Source: Shigella phage SH7
Sequence record: KX828711
Reading direction: 5' to 3' (one strand)
Length of the DNA stretch: 64,000 bases
Below, piece by piece: positions 11,386 to 58,503 of the stretch (its first letter is position 1; each line of letters opens with the position of its first letter). The notes below the pieces were generated by a model, which ran no database searches, was not told where the DNA came from, and saw only the letters and a program-made list of their open reading frames with translations. Made by a program: the position numbers and the translations under genes.

Positions 11386-11988
11386 TTATAGATTAAATCC
11401 TTCAAAATCAAGAGTATAGATAGTATATGTTGAATACTTTTTATACTCATATCTATCTGCAATTCTAAATACACTTCCAGCTGGTATCATTACTTCTTGT
11501 TCATCTGAAACTAATTCCATATTACGATAACGATGGCTATCCGGAAACTTAAAGTTTGGATTGTATTCTTTACAGCGTAGAGCTTTTATGGCATACTCCT
11601 GGAAATTGAATACCATAGGAGCTTTGAATTCAAAAATAACCTGTGTGTTATACTCTAAACCGGAAGCAAAATGTAGAGCTATATTTTTATCATATGAAGC
11701 TGATACGACTTTATCAAATGTAATAATATCAATTCCTTGATTTAACACCTGCTTAGTCTCAGCTGGAACACCTCTCCAAAGAGGTTTATCGTTTGGAACC
11801 AAACGAGATTTGATTATTTCATTTAACCAAGAATGATCGTCTGGCTTATTAGTAATACAATGAATTAAAAGTTCAATTTCGGATAAATTAAATCCTTCGG
11901 AAAGTAATTCTTCACGAATAGAAGCACGCACCGATGCATCCATTGATTTGATTTTAAAATCTTTTAATTGCATTGCTGAATATTTCAT
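11386..11988 (-). CDS. modA: ADP-ribosyltransferase ModA
   Basis: 200 aa; R / S-x-S / E-x-E ART triad (LWRG, SASYD, EQEVMIP); size and order match T4. Confidence 0.7.
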   Translation of the reverse strand: MKYSAMQLKDFKIKSMDASVRASIREELLSEGFNLSEIELLIHCITNKPDDHSWLNEIIKSRLVPNDKPLWRGVPAETKQVLNQGIDIITFDKVVSASYDKNIALHFASGLEYNTQVIFEFKAPMVFNFQEYAIKALRCKEYNPNFKFPDSHRYRNMELVSDEQEVMIPAGSVFRIADRYEYKKYSTYTIYTLDFEGFNL

Positions 11989-12608
11989 TCAACTACCTCA
12001 ATATCATAAACTTTAAATGTTCCAAATGAATCGTGTAATTTTTCTTTTGAAATAGAAGTTATTCTATACTTTCCAATTGGAATCATCCATTCCTGTTCAC
12101 GCACAATCATCATTAAGTTATCAGTACGCTCTGAATCTAATCCATCAGTATCTTCATACGTGTACTTAAACTCAGTATTAGGAGAAGAAAGTATAATATC
12201 GCTGATATGGTCAGAATAATTAAAAGCTTTATCAGTTTTTAAGCGAAGTATTATTTTAGTAAAATATTCAGCGTAAGAAAAAGAACATGCTGTGAGCAAA
12301 CTAGTAGTAAATGAATCTACTCTATTCGTTGAAAACACTTCTCCAACTTGTAAATCTTTAATAAGTTCTTCTGTTGATTTTGATATACCACGATATAACT
12401 GATATGGTGATTTAGTTAAATGCTTTTTAATGATTTTATTCAATTGCCGATGAAGAGCTTCATTCTTTTTGGCTTCCATACATTGCCAAAGAATTGACTG
12501 CTCAAAGTCAGTAAATTTTTCACAGACTTTTTTATACATATCATATTGAAAATCAACGCTTTCAGCTTTTATAGATAACTGTTCAACATCTGCAAGATTA
12601 ATAATCAT
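11985..12608 (-). CDS. modB: ADP-ribosyltransferase ModB
   Basis: 207 aa; paralog of ModA (LYRG, STNRVDS, EQEWMIP). Confidence 0.7.
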   Translation of the reverse strand: MIINLADVEQLSIKAESVDFQYDMYKKVCEKFTDFEQSILWQCMEAKKNEALHRQLNKIIKKHLTKSPYQLYRGISKSTEELIKDLQVGEVFSTNRVDSFTTSLLTACSFSYAEYFTKIILRLKTDKAFNYSDHISDIILSSPNTEFKYTYEDTDGLDSERTDNLMMIVREQEWMIPIGKYRITSISKEKLHDSFGTFKVYDIEVVE

Positions 12609-17118: not shown

Positions 17119-17475
17119 TTAACCTCTATTCATAAAAGCATTAAAAATTTGGTCATCAATAGATGGAATAGCAACCTTTTCTACATCATTTAACAAATCA
17201 TTAATTTCATCAGATAGCATAACGCATGTACCTTTATTTCCTGTAATTGTTACTGCACAATTACGAACGTTTTCTTTATCAAATTTTAGGTTAATATTTT
17301 CGTAGTGAAAATCCTTTAATGCCGAATATATTTTTAAAATGAAATTGTCTTTTACTACAATAAACCCAACCTCACTATTAAAACGCGGTTCATGGAAGCT
17401 GTAATAAATCTTTTCATCTATGAAATCGTATGAAATTTTTTCCATTTTTAAATATGAAAATTCAGAACTATACAT
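17119..17475 (-). CDS. hypothetical protein (61.x cluster)
   Basis: 118-aa ORF. Confidence 0.4.
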   Translation of the reverse strand: MYSSEFSYLKMEKISYDFIDEKIYYSFHEPRFNSEVGFIVVKDNFILKIYSALKDFHYENINLKFDKENVRNCAVTITGNKGTCVMLSDEINDLLNDVEKVAIPSIDDQIFNAFMNRG

Positions 17476-17487
17476 ACTAACCTCTAA

Positions 17488-17781
17488 TTACTCACCTACC
17501 ACTTCAGCGATGATATTTTTATTATTAAAGTTTTTATCGCAATACAGAACATAATTATACTGCATTACACCGCCAGACTTAAGCTGTTTTTGCACTTCAG
17601 CTTTCATTTCAGGACGATCACGCTCAACGATATTCATAATATCTGCTTCAATTTGAGTTTCAACTTCAGTCTGATCTGCAGTCATAGACCACTCACACAA
17701 ATCTTTGTCATAACCCGCCATAGCAGGCTGAGCAGCGCAAGAAGATAAGGCAAAAATTGTAGCAAAGATAAATTTTTTCAT
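17488..17781 (-). CDS. predicted lipoprotein
   Basis: 97-aa ORF; signal peptide with lipobox LSSC. Confidence 0.45.
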   Translation of the reverse strand: MKKFIFATIFALSSCAAQPAMAGYDKDLCEWSMTADQTEVETQIEADIMNIVERDRPEMKAEVQKQLKSGGVMQYNYVLYCDKNFNNKNIIAEVVGE

Positions 17782-17836: not shown

Positions 17837-18091
17837 CTATTTTATTTCCTCAAGTTCGTTAATCAATAAAAGTTCTCTGACGCTAAAAACAAAGAAAAAT
17901 GTGTTCCCATCAACCAGAGCATGACCGCTAATAGAACACCCTCTGCGGAATTTAGAAACTTCACAATCTAGAACTGTAAAGGGTTTTAATCCTATGACTT
18001 TAGCTGTGCGTCTATTCAGTTCACAACCACTTGCGAATTTTTCCAAATCTTCTTCTGATTTAAACTGATATTCTCTATTAACTAGCATCAT
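17837..18091 (-). CDS. hypothetical protein (61.x cluster)
   Basis: 84-aa ORF. Confidence 0.4.
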   Translation of the reverse strand: MMLVNREYQFKSEEDLEKFASGCELNRRTAKVIGLKPFTVLDCEVSKFRRGCSISGHALVDGNTFFFVFSVRELLLINELEEIK

Positions 18092-18122
18092 TTTCTTTTC
18101 TCCGCGATTAGCTGATAGAATT

Positions 18123-18152
18123 ACTATAACACAACTCTATCAGCTTGTAAAT
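18123..18152 (-). promoter_or_regulatory. early promoter (TTTACA, 17 nt, TATAGT)
   Basis: sequence. Confidence 0.5.
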
Positions 18153-18154
18153 TA

Positions 18155-18439
18155 CTATTTTACTATCATCAATAACTGTTTCTCTAACTTGACTATTTTA
18201 CGAAAGTATCTTTTGCATTGACGAATCTGTCGCTTCGTAGGGCGCACAGCAAACTTAATAAATTCCACTCGACCAAATGGAGGGCTTTCTTCTGCTGGAA
18301 TATCTAACACCAATTCCCACGTATCCGCAATAAGTGCCTTGAATTGAGTATTTTTCCTAACATTATACGGAGTAGGTTTAAATAAAACCGTATGCATATT
18401 ATCCTCGGCAATCCACTTCACATACTTTCTTGTCATCAA
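18155..18439 (-). CDS. hypothetical basic protein (61.x cluster)
   Basis: 94-aa ORF. Confidence 0.4.
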   Translation of the reverse strand: MMTRKYVKWIAEDNMHTVLFKPTPYNVRKNTQFKALIADTWELVLDIPAEESPPFGRVEFIKFAVRPTKRQIRQCKRYFRKIVKLEKQLLMIVK

Positions 18440-55095: not shown

Positions 55096-55677
55096 CTAAC
55101 CGAGCTTTTTAGTTAATTCATTCCAATGTTTTCTACACAAAGAAACATAAATTTCATCGCCAATACAGATTTGATTACCCTCTTTAACTGGTGTTCCATC
55201 TTCCATTAATCGAGCTGTCATAATCGCTTTTTTACCACAATGACAAACTGCCTTTAGTTCAATAAGTTTATCTGCAATCGCTAAAAGTTCTTTAGAACCT
55301 TCAAACAATTTTCCAGCGAAATCAGTCCTTAATCCATAAGCCATAACAGGAACATTATATGTATCAACAATTCGGCTCAATTGATGCACCTGTTCAGTTT
55401 TTAAAAACTGAGCTTCATCTACAAATACGCAATGAATATCTTTTTGTGCTTCAGCCCATTTATAGAACTCGAAAATATCCATATCATCTGTAATAATATT
55501 CGCTTCCTGCTTAATTCCAATGCGAGAAACGACTTCACAGACAGAATCGCGAGTATCAATAGCAGGCTTAAGAACTAATACACTCATTCCACGTTCTTTA
55601 TAATTATGTGCAGCAGTCAAAAGAGAAGCAGATTTTCCAGCATTCATTGCTGCATAAGTAAAAATTAAACTCGCCAT
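55096..55677 (-). CDS. tk: thymidine kinase
   Basis: 193 aa; Walker A NAGKSA; C-terminal Zn motif CHCG...C. Confidence 0.85.
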   Translation of the reverse strand: MASLIFTYAAMNAGKSASLLTAAHNYKERGMSVLVLKPAIDTRDSVCEVVSRIGIKQEANIITDDMDIFEFYKWAEAQKDIHCVFVDEAQFLKTEQVHQLSRIVDTYNVPVMAYGLRTDFAGKLFEGSKELLAIADKLIELKAVCHCGKKAIMTARLMEDGTPVKEGNQICIGDEIYVSLCRKHWNELTKKLG

Positions 55678-55678
55678 C

Positions 55679-55867
55679 TTAGTCCTTAGTTAAATTTTCT
55701 AAATATGTTTCTAAATCATTTTCAACTTTATCGATAGATTTTACTAATTCGTAATATGTTTCGGCATCTCCATATTCAGAAGATATTTCAAAAGACAAAT
55801 CCTTTTCTAAACTAATAATTTCACCAACTAAAAATAATATTTCGTTCTTTTGTTCGCGAGTAATCAT
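55679..55867 (-). CDS. small helical protein (M-x-T/S-R/K-EQ family)
   Basis: 62-aa ORF. Confidence 0.4.
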   Translation of the reverse strand: MITREQKNEILFLVGEIISLEKDLSFEISSEYGDAETYYELVKSIDKVENDLETYLENLTKD

Positions 55868-56049
55868 AAGGAATTTATATAATTAATAAGTTCTTGTTCT
55901 TTATTATCGAATTCTTTAGAAAGTTCTTCGTACTCGTTTGCACTAAAAGGACCGCATTCATTACAAACTTTTTCCAATTCACTATTTTTATCCATAACTT
56001 CGTGGATAAGAGAAAAGAGTTTGTCTTTTTGTTCTTTGCTTAGGCTCAT
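55864..56049 (-). CDS. small helical protein (same family)
   Basis: 61-aa ORF. Confidence 0.4.
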   Translation of the reverse strand: MSLSKEQKDKLFSLIHEVMDKNSELEKVCNECGPFSANEYEELSKEFDNKEQELINYINSL

Positions 56050-56219
56050 ATATTAATTTCCAGAAGTTTTAAAATAATTCGCTTTTGCTTAAATATTTCC
56101 ACAGTTAAATGATCAGTATCTTTTTGACCAATTCCAATGGCAAAACCTTTATTAACAGCGAGTTCAATTAAATTATCAAGTTCACGTAACACTTCATATT
56201 GTAACTCAGAACTATTCAT
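56046..56219 (-). CDS. 57-aa hypothetical protein
   Basis: own translation MNSSELQYEVLRELDNLIEL...; ATGA overlaps at both ends. Confidence 0.35.
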   Translation of the reverse strand: MNSSELQYEVLRELDNLIELAVNKGFAIGIGQKDTDHLTVEIFKQKRIILKLLEINI

Positions 56220-56428
56220 TTCGGTTTACCTTCTTTAACGAAATCTGGATAAGGATAAAATCCCGAATAAAATCCTTCACCTTTATGATTGATGCATCCT
56301 TTATTAGAACAATAGCACCAATAATCGAAATCACAAACCATTTCATCGTTGCATAAAGCAAAAACAACCGGCCATTTACACTTTTCACAGTGGGCATTTT
56401 TAAGAATACTAGTTTGGCTCATAACCAT
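56216..56428 (-). CDS. Cys-rich small protein
   Basis: 70-aa ORF with 9 Cys (CEKCKW...CNDEMVCDFDYWCYCSNKGC). Confidence 0.4.
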   Translation of the reverse strand: MVMSQTSILKNAHCEKCKWPVVFALCNDEMVCDFDYWCYCSNKGCINHKGEGFYSGFYPYPDFVKEGKPK

Positions 56429-56646
56429 GTCACCTTTAAGCAGTATTCTTCTACATGCTGTTTACGACCTTTCTTATCAATAAAGGTATATTCAACGAAT
56501 GTTCCAATGTAGTCTTTATCTACATCATGTGGACTATTAATTGGACATTTAGTACGGCAAATGCGTTCCCATTGACGAATAATTACTGCCTTATTCTTTG
56601 GGTCATACGGATGTGGATAATGTATATTCATAATAACGGTTCCCAA
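56419..56646 (-). CDS. small hypothetical protein
   Basis: 75-aa ORF. Confidence 0.35.
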   Translation of the reverse strand: MGTVIMNIHYPHPYDPKNKAVIIRQWERICRTKCPINSPHDVDKDYIGTFVEYTFIDKKGRKQHVEEYCLKVTWL

Positions 56647-57095
56647 TCAACAATCACAATTTCTAATTTAGAGGAATATGTATCTAAAATCCCCTCAATA
56701 ATATCCCAGTTCCCTTTACCTATGCCTGCTCCAATCCTAGGCATATAAATTGTAGGTTTAATCAGTTTATTTTCACCAAACTCATTTAATTCTAACATAC
56801 AATTCATTAAAGCGGAATACTCAAAATTTGGCCCTGGTTGAAATTGAGTATAAAGATTAAAGCAATACGCTTTATGAGTCCTAAAGTATTTTTCATAGAC
56901 TGAGTAAGAACCGAGTTTAGTTACATCACCCCATTCAGTCTGTAATTTATCAGCTTCCAAAATTTTAGGGAAAGCTTTGGTTAATTGACCTGCGACTCCA
57001 GCTTTCATCGCGTGAAAACAATTACATCCATGCGCAATATTTTTACCTTCAGCGAAAAGGGCGACAATATCGCCCTTGATATATTTTACAATCAT
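56628..57095 (-). CDS. macro-domain-like protein
   Basis: 155 aa; GDI...AHGCNCFHAMKAGVAGQL and PRIGAGIGKGNW resemble macro-domain NAAN/GGGV and G-I-G-G loops. Confidence 0.45.
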   Translation of the reverse strand: MIVKYIKGDIVALFAEGKNIAHGCNCFHAMKAGVAGQLTKAFPKILEADKLQTEWGDVTKLGSYSVYEKYFRTHKAYCFNLYTQFQPGPNFEYSALMNCMLELNEFGENKLIKPTIYMPRIGAGIGKGNWDIIEGILDTYSSKLEIVIVDWEPLL

Positions 57096-57439
57096 CTAGT
57101 ACTCAATCCTCGATTATAAGAATCTACCAAACGGTCAACCATTGAATGACAAGCGGCTTTATCTTTCTCCTCCGCAACTGAACATTCTAAGGTATTCCAC
57201 TTTTTAGCATATCGTTTTAATAATGTATCGTTTTTGTATCTACTTGATTTATCTCTTTCTCCGTCTTTATATGCATATATTAATTTCTGTGCAAATTCAG
57301 CTTGACATGCTTTATTTTTCCCACAATAATCTGCCGCAGTGCGGTTTACATATTCTCTAATTTCAGTATATGATGTATCTGCTGATGCAGAAGCAGAAAA
57401 TGAAATTAATCCTATACATAAAACCAAAATTTTAGTCAT
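57092..57439 (-). CDS. secreted hypothetical protein
   Basis: 115 aa; cleavable signal peptide; conserved Cys pairs. Confidence 0.4.
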   Translation of the reverse strand: MTKILVLCIGLISFSASASADTSYTEIREYVNRTAADYCGKNKACQAEFAQKLIYAYKDGERDKSSRYKNDTLLKRYAKKWNTLECSVAEEKDKAACHSMVDRLVDSYNRGLSTR

Positions 57440-57977
57440 TTACTATTTCCAAAAGTTTATTATTTTTAAGGTAATTAGCCTTTTCTAGGACTTCAGAAGC
57501 ATATTTAGAACCAGCTTTAACATTCCATCCCGAATTATAAGAGGATATTGCTTTTCTTATATCGCCCTTATGTATATTTAACCAATAAGAAAGTTCAATG
57601 TACGCCCAGGAAGCTGAATTGGATCGTTTATTCAACATTCTTTTTATTTCAGCATCGGTCATATTATAACCAAGTTCCTTAACTCTTGCTCGCATAGTAG
57701 GCAAATAATTTTGGAACATTCCGTAGGCGTGATGCTTTGGTTTAGATTTTAAATTAACTCCGCCAGAGCTTTCTTGCCATAAAATAGCAGCCATTATATG
57801 ACCTAATCCGCTCTTGTGGATATTTTTGTGTGTTTTATATTTTCCATCCTTAGAAAATTGTTCCCCGAATTGATACGCGTAACGCATGTTATCGAGTTGG
57901 ACATTACTGAAAGTATGCTCGGAGCTATGTGCCATCATTGAAATGGCCAATAGACCAGCGAGTAGTGCTTTTCTCAT
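57432..57977 (-). CDS. periplasmic lytic-transglycosylase-like (SLT) protein
   Basis: 181 aa; signal peptide; catalytic-type WQESSGG and YGMFQ motifs. Confidence 0.55.
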   Translation of the reverse strand: MRKALLAGLLAISMMAHSSEHTFSNVQLDNMRYAYQFGEQFSKDGKYKTHKNIHKSGLGHIMAAILWQESSGGVNLKSKPKHHAYGMFQNYLPTMRARVKELGYNMTDAEIKRMLNKRSNSASWAYIELSYWLNIHKGDIRKAISSYNSGWNVKAGSKYASEVLEKANYLKNNKLLEIVND

Positions 57978-57984
57978 GCTTACC

Positions 57985-58446
57985 TCATTGAGTTTTAATT
58001 ACTGCTTTAGAAGCCTTTCCTGGTAAACGACGACTGTTGATAATTGCCATCCTACATTGAAGTGACGGGTCTTTGAACTTCTCGTTAGGTTTACAAACTG
58101 TAAATCCAAGCCAAAGATTTCCATCTGTGATTTCTAAACGTCCAGGACGATATTCAACCCCATCAATAAAATCCTCGTCAATGTCAGGACGCGGAGGCAT
58201 TCTCAGGAATTCATTAACTTCTAAAACATGGTCTTTTATTTTATGGAATAATTCAAAAACGTATGTCTCATCAATCTCCCGTTGAATTGCACGATCAAGA
58301 AGATGTTGAGAATATTTTAGATGAAACGATGAGACCCCTGCTGCTTTTGATGCCTCACGAATCTCATTGTTAATTTGACGAAACTCCGACTCAAAGTGAC
58401 GACGAAGCTTATTTCGACGGATAAAAACTTCAGTGTTGATAGTCAT
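57985..58446 (-). CDS. regB: RegB endoribonuclease
   Basis: 153 aa, size identical to T4 RegB; position between vs cluster and tk. Confidence 0.65.
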   Translation of the reverse strand: MTINTEVFIRRNKLRRHFESEFRQINNEIREASKAAGVSSFHLKYSQHLLDRAIQREIDETYVFELFHKIKDHVLEVNEFLRMPPRPDIDEDFIDGVEYRPGRLEITDGNLWLGFTVCKPNEKFKDPSLQCRMAIINSRRLPGKASKAVIKTQ

Positions 58447-58473: not shown

Positions 58474-58503
58474 ATTATACCACAGTCAAGAGGAAAAGTA
58501 AAC
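58474..58503 (-). promoter_or_regulatory. early promoter (TTTACT, 17 nt, TATAAT)
   Basis: sequence. Confidence 0.55.

Follow-up and report, generated by a model that had tools for sequence, protein, structure and literature searches.

The locus considered here raises the question of what a 155-aa protein with macro-domain-like loops is doing within a chain of small, overlapping phage genes. It lies in a 64-kb window (the whole stretch of DNA that was analysed, 64,000 nt) from a T-even phage (Tequatrovirus), and over the eight-gene stretch the identity is 99.1% to JK38 and 98.5% to T2 and T6. A reading of the sequence alone had placed eight chained genes downstream of tk and had offered two functions for the protein in question, either tuning the phage's own ADP-ribosylation programme or countering DarT-type toxins. 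The chain itself was borne out when the sequence was read directly along with the ORF list, all eight genes being on the minus strand and linked by short overlaps; its placement has to be corrected, as the chain lies 5' of tk along transcription, i.e., upstream. In order, the genes are vs.1, vs, tk.4, tk.3, two small genes absent from T4, tk.2, and tk.1, flanked by regB and tk:

58474..58502, minus strand: promoter-like site just upstream of regB (TTTACT, 17 nt, TATAAT, with TG; consensus scan only)
57985..58446, minus strand: regB, endoribonuclease, first gene of the run (PF10715, E 9e-69)
57432..57977, minus strand: vs.1, 181 aa, signal-peptide-like N-terminus and SLT lytic-transglycosylase domain
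57092..57439, minus strand: vs, 115-aa valyl-tRNA synthetase modifier, signal-peptide-like N-terminus (phrog_1256, E 1.7e-39)
56628..57095, minus strand: tk.4 (adfM), 155 aa, stand-alone macro domain, anti-DarTG2 factor
56419..56631, minus strand: tk.3, 70 aa, DUF7202 (PF23832, E 2e-38), ATGA overlap with tk.4
56216..56428 (70 aa) or 56216-56422 (68 aa), minus strand: small Cys-rich gene, Pfam "Phage zinc binding domain" (PF23895, E 2.4e-29)
56046..56219, minus strand: 57-aa gene absent from T4 (phrog_3452, E 2.8e-33)
55864..56049, minus strand: tk.2, 61 aa, DUF7438 (PF24219, E 3.9e-19; phrog_653)
55679..55867, minus strand: tk.1, 62 aa, DUF7438 (PF24219, E 1.1e-13; phrog_653)
55096..55677, minus strand: tk, thymidine kinase, last gene of the run (PF00265, E 6e-61)

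The vs.1/vs overlap is 8 nt (ATGACTAA), and ATGA overlaps join vs to tk.4, tk.4 to tk.3, tk.3 to the zinc-binding gene, the latter to the 57-aa gene, the 57-aa gene to tk.2, and tk.2 to tk.1, the tk.3/zinc-binding junction being an ATGA overlap on condition that translation starts with the ATG at 56422. Since the gap between tk.1 and tk is 1 nt and that between regB and vs.1 is 7 nt, the run spans regB to tk. About 27 candidate ATGA junctions emerged from a mechanical scan of the minus strand of the whole window, and the six consecutive junctions found here form its longest run, the others being of two at most. The promoter-like site is a candidate start of a regB-to-tk transcript, and the same consensus scan gave no minus-strand terminator-like site from regB to tk.

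The neighbors of tk.4 are a mixed group. The SLT-type transglycosylase domain that had been recognized in the chain belongs to vs.1, which scores 25.1 bits against Pfam SLT (cut-off 21.3) and whose translation contains WQESSGG, GMFQ, and SYNSG, with the catalytic Glu-Ser motif in place; its activity and its periplasmic location are predicted ones. Both vs.1 and vs bear these names in the T2 and T4 records. The N-terminus of Vs reads MTKILVLCIGLISFSASASA/DTSY, searching the literature for Vs and this signal-like segment returned nothing useful, and NCBIfam gave no match for Vs, Vs.1, ModA, or ModB. The eighth member of the chain, which had been left undescribed, is tk.3. The zinc-binding protein, once credited with nine cysteines, has seven Cys and two His; its start is probably at 56422, giving 68 aa, a choice favored by the spacing to the Shine-Dalgarno sequence, by a Pfam match that sets in at residue 3 of the longer ORF, and by the annotation of JK38. 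T4 lacks the two small genes that this phage has between tk.3 and tk.2: window positions 56051-56417 (367 nt), which contain the 57-aa gene, have no T4 counterpart, and the zinc-binding gene is likewise missing there. Through common Pfam and PHROG profiles, and only through these, tk.1 is identified as a distant paralogue of tk.2; a BLASTP comparison of Tk.1 with Tk.2 gave no match, and no Shine-Dalgarno sequence is visible upstream of the tk.1 start.

By its sequence and position, the 155-aa protein is Tk.4, the orthologue of T4 Tk.4/AdfM, an anti-DarT factor with a macrodomain. The two proteins are identical at 152 of 155 residues (98%, full length), and each gene has vs on one side and tk.3 on the other. 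The call of a macro domain, made earlier from the letters alone, has held up well. Tk.4 scores 24.3 bits against Pfam Macro (PF01661; cut-off 22, residues 22-132), and an AlphaFold model, built on an alignment from which the T4 sequence was left out, has a pLDDT of 95.6 and, compared with solved structures, a predicted macro fold. When the family profile was searched against the PDB, matches were obtained to BT1257 (6e-21), SCO6735 (2e-17), TARG1 (2e-17), Poa1p (7e-15), and DarG (4e-14). The nearest structures are all ALC1-like (TARG1/DarG/SCO6735/Poa1p), with the other macro classes clearly apart, and Tk.4 is a stand-alone macro domain of this class. The Gly-rich phosphate-binding loops, on whose presence the original call had been made to depend, are both there, loop 1 being M30-x-x-G33-[VI]-A35 and loop 2 P119-x-I-G122-x-G124-x-x-x-G128; across 87 homologues, G33, A35, P119, and G122 are invariant and G124 and G128 nearly so.

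None of this opens a new question, as the macro domain and the anti-DarTG2 role of tk.4 are already known. DarTG systems halt phages by ADP-ribosylating phage DNA. An A1pp/macro match of tk.4 has been in print since 2006 (PMC1524935), and some GenBank records label its product "macro domain-containing protein" or "phosphatase". It was also known that something other than AdfA and AdfN, then unidentified, makes T-even phages resistant to DarTG2 (PMC11257639). In a 2025 preprint, a T4 transposon library plated on a DarTG2 host singled out tk.4 as the one significant match, and cleanly knocking out T4 tk.4 sensitized the phage to DarTG2, whereupon the gene was renamed adfM; on a host without DarTG2, tk.4 is dispensable (bioRxiv 10.1101/2025.11.20.689424). 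The knockout on DarTG hosts that the sequence-only reading had proposed is therefore published for T4, and its idea of a counter to DarT-type toxins was right and already known, given that deletion of a gene whose product is 98% identical sensitizes T4.

What can be added concerns the active site and the class of enzyme, and hinges on one codon:

56844..56846, minus strand: Gln84 codon (NLYTQ motif); the residue corresponds to the catalytic Lys in DarG (K80) and TARG1 (K84) and to Gln85, which is essential in SCO6735

Every one of the 251 aligned relatives keeps Q84, and there is little or no variation at N25, G33, A35, and G122. With hhalign, Q84 falls opposite K80 of M. tuberculosis DarG (the Lys of NFPTK), while against SCO6735, Q84 corresponds to Q85, N25 to N27, and H22 to H24. 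The assignment of the active site rests on these two alignments, which are cleaner than that with PhiKZ gp104, where NLYTQ lies one residue off the FPTK register in a low-confidence stretch. SCO6735 strips from DNA the thymidine-ADP-ribose that DarT makes, and cells exposed to DarT are rescued by it; the enzyme is inactive with Q85A and nearly so with N27S (PMC9411070). Tk.4 shares with the Gln-type proteins SCO6735 (PDB 5e3b; S. coelicolor) and BT1257 (PDB 2afc, 2fg1; Bacteroides) both the Gln at the TARG1/DarG Lys position and the supporting Asn. Judged from sequence and analogy, its chemistry is probably like that of Streptomyces SCO6735 rather than DarG and proceeds without a catalytic lysine. 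The likeness has its limits, however. SCO6735 and BT1257 are bacterial proteins with about 20-29% identity to the phage-encoded Tk.4; SCO6735 has Val25 and the DNA-binding Lys34, where Tk.4 has Gly23 and Ala32 (Ser in T4), and the mobile loop of SCO6735, which carries Lys89, is five residues longer than that of Tk.4.

The differences from DarG (PDB 5m3i, 5m31, 7omu) are greater. Besides having Lys80 where Tk.4 has Gln84, DarG binds DarT through a C-terminal domain and has darT next to it, whereas Tk.4 is a macro domain of 155 aa with vs and tk.3 as neighbors; against the NCBIfam DarG model (NF048014), it reaches 24.9 bits, with a cut-off of 250, and matches positions 2-146 of 338. Sequence comparison thus supplies one new detail, namely that Tk.4 is not a DarG orthologue and has an invariant Q84 in place of the catalytic Lys. 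The same distinction applies within phages. PhiKZ gp104, also named AdfM, is, like Tk.4, a stand-alone phage macro domain acting against DarTG2, and it is DarG-like and strips thymidine-ADP-ribose in vitro (Cell Rep 2026, PMC13309987). However, gp104 scores 132.9 bits with the PADLOC DarG model and Tk.4 29.5; gp104 matches M. tuberculosis DarG at E 9e-25, keeps the FPTK lysine, and has about 20% identity to the Tk.4 family. By these comparisons the two proteins named AdfM belong to different subfamilies.

Taken together, these results are best explained if Tk.4/AdfM is a macro domain that protects the phage from DarTG2, likely through hydrolysis of thymidine-ADP-ribose, an explanation that we hold to be very probable. 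In this model, Tk.4 would be made early in infection with its neighbors, from a regB-to-tk transcript. Once host DarT2 is released and places ADP-ribose on thymidines of single-stranded phage DNA, the two Gly-rich loops of Tk.4 would bind the ADP-ribose, and the distal ribose would be oriented by Gln84, itself steadied by Asn25. Hydrolysis of the thymine-ribose bond would then restore normal DNA, so that replication could continue. The variant tk.4 allele of this phage, described below, would be active as well.

The substrate range may be wider. As an addition to protection from DarTG2, Tk.4 might act on further substrates, such as uracil-linked ADP-ribose on RNA, and so counter more than one ADP-ribosylating defence. 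TARG1, DarG, and SCO6735 all strip uracil-linked ADP-ribose from RNA, SCO6735 efficiently (PMC13036486), and the latter also acts on Glu/Asp-linked protein ADP-ribose (PMC9411070). On the other hand, a bacterial defence producing ADP-ribose linked to uracil did not emerge from our literature search, and CmdTAC, a system that ADP-ribosylates mRNA, still acts against T-even phages (PMC11618068), from which it follows that Tk.4 does not neutralize CmdTAC. Such an extension is therefore possible but doubtful.

Hydrolysis need not be the sole mode of action, since catalytically dead SCO6735 still inhibits DarT via binding, and in vitro the inactive Q85A protein does so more than inactive DarG or TARG1 (PMC9411070). 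If Tk.4 behaved in this way, it would mainly bind and block DarT2 or shield the modified DNA. The literature search found no enzyme assay of Tk.4 itself, hydrolase assays included, and in the T4 preprint hydrolysis is inferred from structural similarity only (bioRxiv 10.1101/2025.11.20.689424), both of which leave room for blocking. However, the residues kept in 251 relatives (Q84, N25, G33, A35, G122) are those of the active site in the ADP-ribose pocket, the pattern expected of an enzyme, and Tk.4, at 155 aa, has no equivalent of the C-terminal domain by which DarG binds DarT, the NCBIfam model of DarG having 338 positions. Blocking as the main activity is consequently quite unlikely.

Less likely again, to the point of being very improbable, is a role of Tk.4 as a phosphatase of ADP-ribose 1''-phosphate or as an enzyme of ADP-ribose metabolites in general, like yeast Poa1p. 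The "phosphatase" or "A1pp motif" label in GenBank comes from the domain name rather than from an assay, and the only tk.4 phenotype that we found is sensitivity to DarTG2 (bioRxiv 10.1101/2025.11.20.689424). In addition, the family conserves no single residue at the position of Poa1p Ser30, which is mutated in PDB 6lft (the counts are Thr 32, Ala 22, Val 10, Leu 7), and this phage has Ala there.

Finally, ModA and ModB are indeed encoded by the same phage, as had been pointed out (11386-11988 and 11985-12608, both matching phrog_832, "RNA polymerase ADP-ribosylase"), and the tk.4 programme, like that of ModA/ModB, would run early in infection. The targets of Alt, ModA, and ModB are arginine side chains, and ADP-ribose in this linkage is taken off by enzymes of the ARH/DraG type; we know of no macro domain that cleaves it. 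Given a linkage not known as a macro-domain substrate, a distance of about 44 kb between tk.4 and modA/modB, and the dispensability of tk.4 on a DarTG2-free host (bioRxiv 10.1101/2025.11.20.689424), it is hardly credible that Tk.4 removes or recognizes ADP-ribose marks made by the phage itself, and this half of the earlier proposal finds no support.

Within the preferred reading of Tk.4 as an anti-DarTG2 hydrolase, loop 1 deserves separate comment:

56991..57012, minus strand: 22-nt loop-1 patch, H-A-M-K-A-G in this phage and H-T-M-G-S-G in T4 and T2

Eleven of the 18 nt differences from T4 tk.4 fall inside this patch, and the change of T, G, and S to A29, K31, and A32 accounts for all three residue differences between the proteins. 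When IMG/VR was scanned for exact copies of the two loop-1 patterns, the matches numbered 1 and 0, too sparse for an allele frequency; BLAST against the GenBank phage set was therefore used, where about 40 of the 612 phage records carried the allele of the window. At the first Gly of loop 1, where this phage has Lys, 200 of 252 relatives have Gly and 12 have Lys. That this phage carries a minority loop-1 allele is a further new detail. It is unlikely that G31K makes this copy inactive: Lys occurs in those 12 relatives, G33 and A35 are intact, and the same allele is present in the isolated phage JK38. With the change from G-S-G to K-A-G, the lysine comes to stand beside the counterpart of Lys34, a DNA-binding residue in SCO6735. 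One could imagine that the patch is a specificity switch carried by recombination, with T-even phages swapping substrate-binding-loop alleles of a Gln-type hydrolase, but we consider this unlikely. If true, loop swaps would let the phages keep up with differing DarT2 proteins or with further ADP-ribosyltransferases of nucleic acids. Still weaker is the idea that some of the small genes (tk.1, tk.2, tk.3, and those for the zinc-binding and 57-aa proteins) might provide further counter-defence factors.

Tk.4 is not the only T-even protein of this kind. AdfN (T4 gp30.3, NADAR) and AdfA (T4 gp61.2) also counter DarT toxins, and AdfN, as Tk.4 is predicted to be, is an orphan antitoxin-like hydrolase; both nevertheless have other folds and target DarTG1, which modifies guanosine, and neither guards against DarTG2 (PMC11257639). 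Compared with T4, this phage lacks adfA (61.2). An "orphan antitoxin" origin was also pursued through bacterial homologues adjacent to darT, but the two "bacterial" MAG homologues examined (P0053 and P0076) sit on T4-like phage contigs, which carry Rnl1, Dda, PNKP, and dCMP deaminase and are uninformative on bacterial context.

T-even phages thus have layered countermeasures in AdfA, AdfN, and AdfM, and the presence of adfM together with the absence of adfA in this phage helps to predict which hosts it can infect. In practical terms, catalytically dead controls for Tk.4 call for mutation of Q84 or N25, not of a lysine. The new point is a modest one: the Tk.4 of T-even phages appears to be of the Gln type, like SCO6735, and not of the DarG type, like the PhiKZ protein of the same name. 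If so, phages would have recruited two branches of one macro class against the same toxin.

The 155-aa product of tk.4 (56628..57095, minus strand) is a macro domain. As a single sequence it scores 24.3 bits against Pfam Macro (cut-off 22) and matches the solved structures of BT1257, Poa1p, TARG1, and DarG; an 86-homologue profile matches BT1257 at 6e-21, SCO6735 (a Streptomyces coelicolor macro domain) and TARG1 at 2e-17, Poa1p at 7e-15, and DarG at 4e-14. The AlphaFold2 model has a mean pLDDT of 95.6, and loop residues G33, A35, P119, and G122 are invariant across 87 sequences. Thus, Pfam, the structure-profile matches, and the model place Tk.4 inside the macro-domain superfamily, as the sequence-only reading had proposed, and the Gly-rich loops it had noticed are present and conserved on alignment.

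Much of this is already on record. Tk.4 is identical to T4 Tk.4 at 152 of 155 residues; a 2006 publication had already given an A1pp/macro match for tk.4 and an SLT match for vs.1 (PMC1524935), and GenBank labels tk.4 either 'phosphatase' or 'macro domain-containing protein'. In 2024-25, T-even phages were noted to resist DarTG2 through some factor, not then identified, other than AdfA (61.2) or AdfN (30.3) (PMC11257639). According to the HIDEN-SEQ preprint of November 2025, tk.4 was the sole significant hit when a T4 transposon library was grown on a host carrying DarTG2; a clean T4 tk.4 knockout was sensitised to DarTG2, and the authors renamed the gene adfM (bioRxiv 10.1101/2025.11.20.689424). 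The suggestion that this protein counters DarT-type toxins is supported, for the T4 gene, by the very experiment that had been proposed. PhiKZ gp104, which removes ADP-ribose from DNA thymidine in vitro, was independently named AdfM (2026 Cell Reports, PMC13309987).

The 3.5 kb around tk.4 match 664 phage records, Tequatrovirus nearly throughout; identity is 99.1% with Shigella phage JK38 and about 98.5% with T6 and T2. Because of this near-identity, gene names follow the T2 and T4 records, giving the minus-strand order regB, vs.1, vs, tk.4, tk.3, a 68/70-aa Zn-binding gene, a 57-aa gene, tk.2, tk.1, tk:

57432-57977, minus strand: vs.1, whose product is signal-like at the N-terminus and carries the three SLT motifs (WQESSGG, GMFQ, SYNSG)
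57092-57439, minus strand: vs, 'valyl-tRNA synthetase modifier'
56628-57095, minus strand: tk.4
between tk.4 and the next segment, minus strand: tk.3 (DUF7202), left undescribed in the sequence-only reading
56051-56417, minus strand: 367-nt segment with the 68/70-aa gene (PF23895, 'phage zinc binding') and the 57-aa gene
55679-56049, minus strand: tk.2 and tk.1

The minus strand was read directly from 58010 to 55660 for junctions. An 8-nt overlap (ATGACTAA) joins vs.1 to vs, and ATGA overlaps follow at six consecutive junctions, vs/tk.4 through tk.2/tk.1. The tk.3/Zn-gene junction is ATGA only with a Zn-gene start at 56422. Shine-Dalgarno spacing favours this start, as do the JK38 annotation and the Pfam match, which sets in at residue 3 when the longer ORF is used. 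Gaps of 7 nt (regB end to vs.1) and 1 nt (tk.1 to the tk start) flank the chain. In a mechanical scan of the entire window, the minus strand has about 27 candidate ATGA junctions, and these six form the longest run, other runs being of two at most. Consensus scans gave a candidate promoter-like site directly upstream of regB and no terminator-like site on the minus strand from regB to tk. The overlapping eight-gene chain stands, but it lies transcriptionally upstream of tk rather than downstream, and the small protein credited with nine Cys has seven Cys and two His.

The 367-nt segment is present in T2, T6, and JK38 and absent from T4. By their common matches to DUF7438 and phrog_653, Tk.1 and Tk.2 are distant tandem paralogues, although BLASTP shows no similarity of one to the other. 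No Shine-Dalgarno sequence is visible before tk.1, and its translation may depend on coupling to tk.2. The N-terminus of Vs resembles a Sec signal peptide that could be cleaved (MTKILVLCIGLISFSASASA/DTSY), which is unexpected for a protein whose stated target is an enzyme of the cytoplasm; T4 is reported to require vs for growth in minimal medium (bioRxiv 10.1101/2025.11.20.689424). In a distant T4-like contig (L006), a macro gene and an SLT gene are likewise just two genes apart.

The anti-DarTG1 gene adfA (61.2) is missing at 17475-17490, between 61.1 (17119-17475) and sp (17488-17781), where about 648 bp of JK38 (record L004, 16340-16987) have no counterpart. A 49-nt repeat common to the 3' ends of 61.1 and 61.2, encoding SIDDQIFNAFMN[KR]G, could have mediated the deletion. 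By blastn of the region, about 330 nt at 17845-18174 have no JK38 counterpart; a 94-aa ORF (18155-18439) adjoins them.

At E <=0.001 the Tk.4 profile recovers 19,623 cluster representatives, of which 1,366 reach <=1e-30. Named close relatives belong to T4-like phages of Escherichia, Salmonella, Acinetobacter, and Vibrio, and two homologues filed as bacterial MAG both lie on T4-like phage contigs. Eleven of the 18 nucleotide differences from T4 tk.4 are concentrated in a 22-nt patch (56991-57012) that changes loop 1 from H-T-M-G-S-G (T4) to H-A-M-K-A-G; since synonymous changes are included, the patch looks like a small recombination tract. Among 612 phage records, about 40 carry this allele and about 207 the T4-like one.

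DarG is the comparison used for Tk.4 in the HIDEN-SEQ preprint (bioRxiv 10.1101/2025.11.20.689424). Judged by its sequence, however, Tk.4 is no orthologue of DarG: its score is 24.9 bits against the NCBIfam DarG model (cut-off 250) and 29.5 against that of PADLOC, where PhiKZ gp104 reaches 132.9, and it lacks the C-terminal DarT-binding domain. In profile alignments, Gln84 (NLYTQ motif), kept in 251 of 251 aligned relatives, aligns with the catalytic Lys80 in DarG and with Gln85 in SCO6735; Asn25 and His22 align with Asn27 and His24 of the latter. SCO6735 strips off the thymidine-ADP-ribose that DarT makes and can rescue cells from this toxin; its activity is abolished by Q85A and nearly abolished by N27S (PMC9411070). 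From these alignments and this biochemistry we infer that the T-even AdfM would use an SCO6735-type, lysine-free mechanism and that it and PhiKZ AdfM belong to separate subfamilies. Nevertheless, Tk.4 departs from SCO6735 in some features: Gly23 stands where SCO6735 has Val25, the DNA-binding Lys34 is replaced by Ala32 (Ser in T4), and the mobile loop is shorter by 5 residues.

Besides the predicted hydrolysis, binding of DarT may contribute to protection by Tk.4, because inactive SCO6735 likewise blocks DarT through binding (PMC9411070). More speculatively, Tk.4 might have extra substrates such as uracil-linked ADP-ribose on RNA, which TARG1-like enzymes including SCO6735 also remove (PMC13036486). 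ModA and ModB do lie at 11.4-12.6 kb, as the sequence-only reading had it, but nothing links Tk.4 to that programme of the phage. Both modify arginine, and arginine-linked ADP-ribose is handled by ARH/DraG-type enzymes and is not known to be a macro-domain substrate. Furthermore, tk.4 is dispensable where the host lacks DarTG2 (bioRxiv 10.1101/2025.11.20.689424).

Taken together, the observation is confirmed and its interpretation supported; the gene is known and its function recently published, so the finding is not novel. What is added here, the Gln-type classification and the loop-1 allele, refines the picture only slightly. One name, AdfM, coming from two unrelated papers, covers both the Gln-type protein of the T-even phages and the DarG-like, Lys-type gp104 of PhiKZ.
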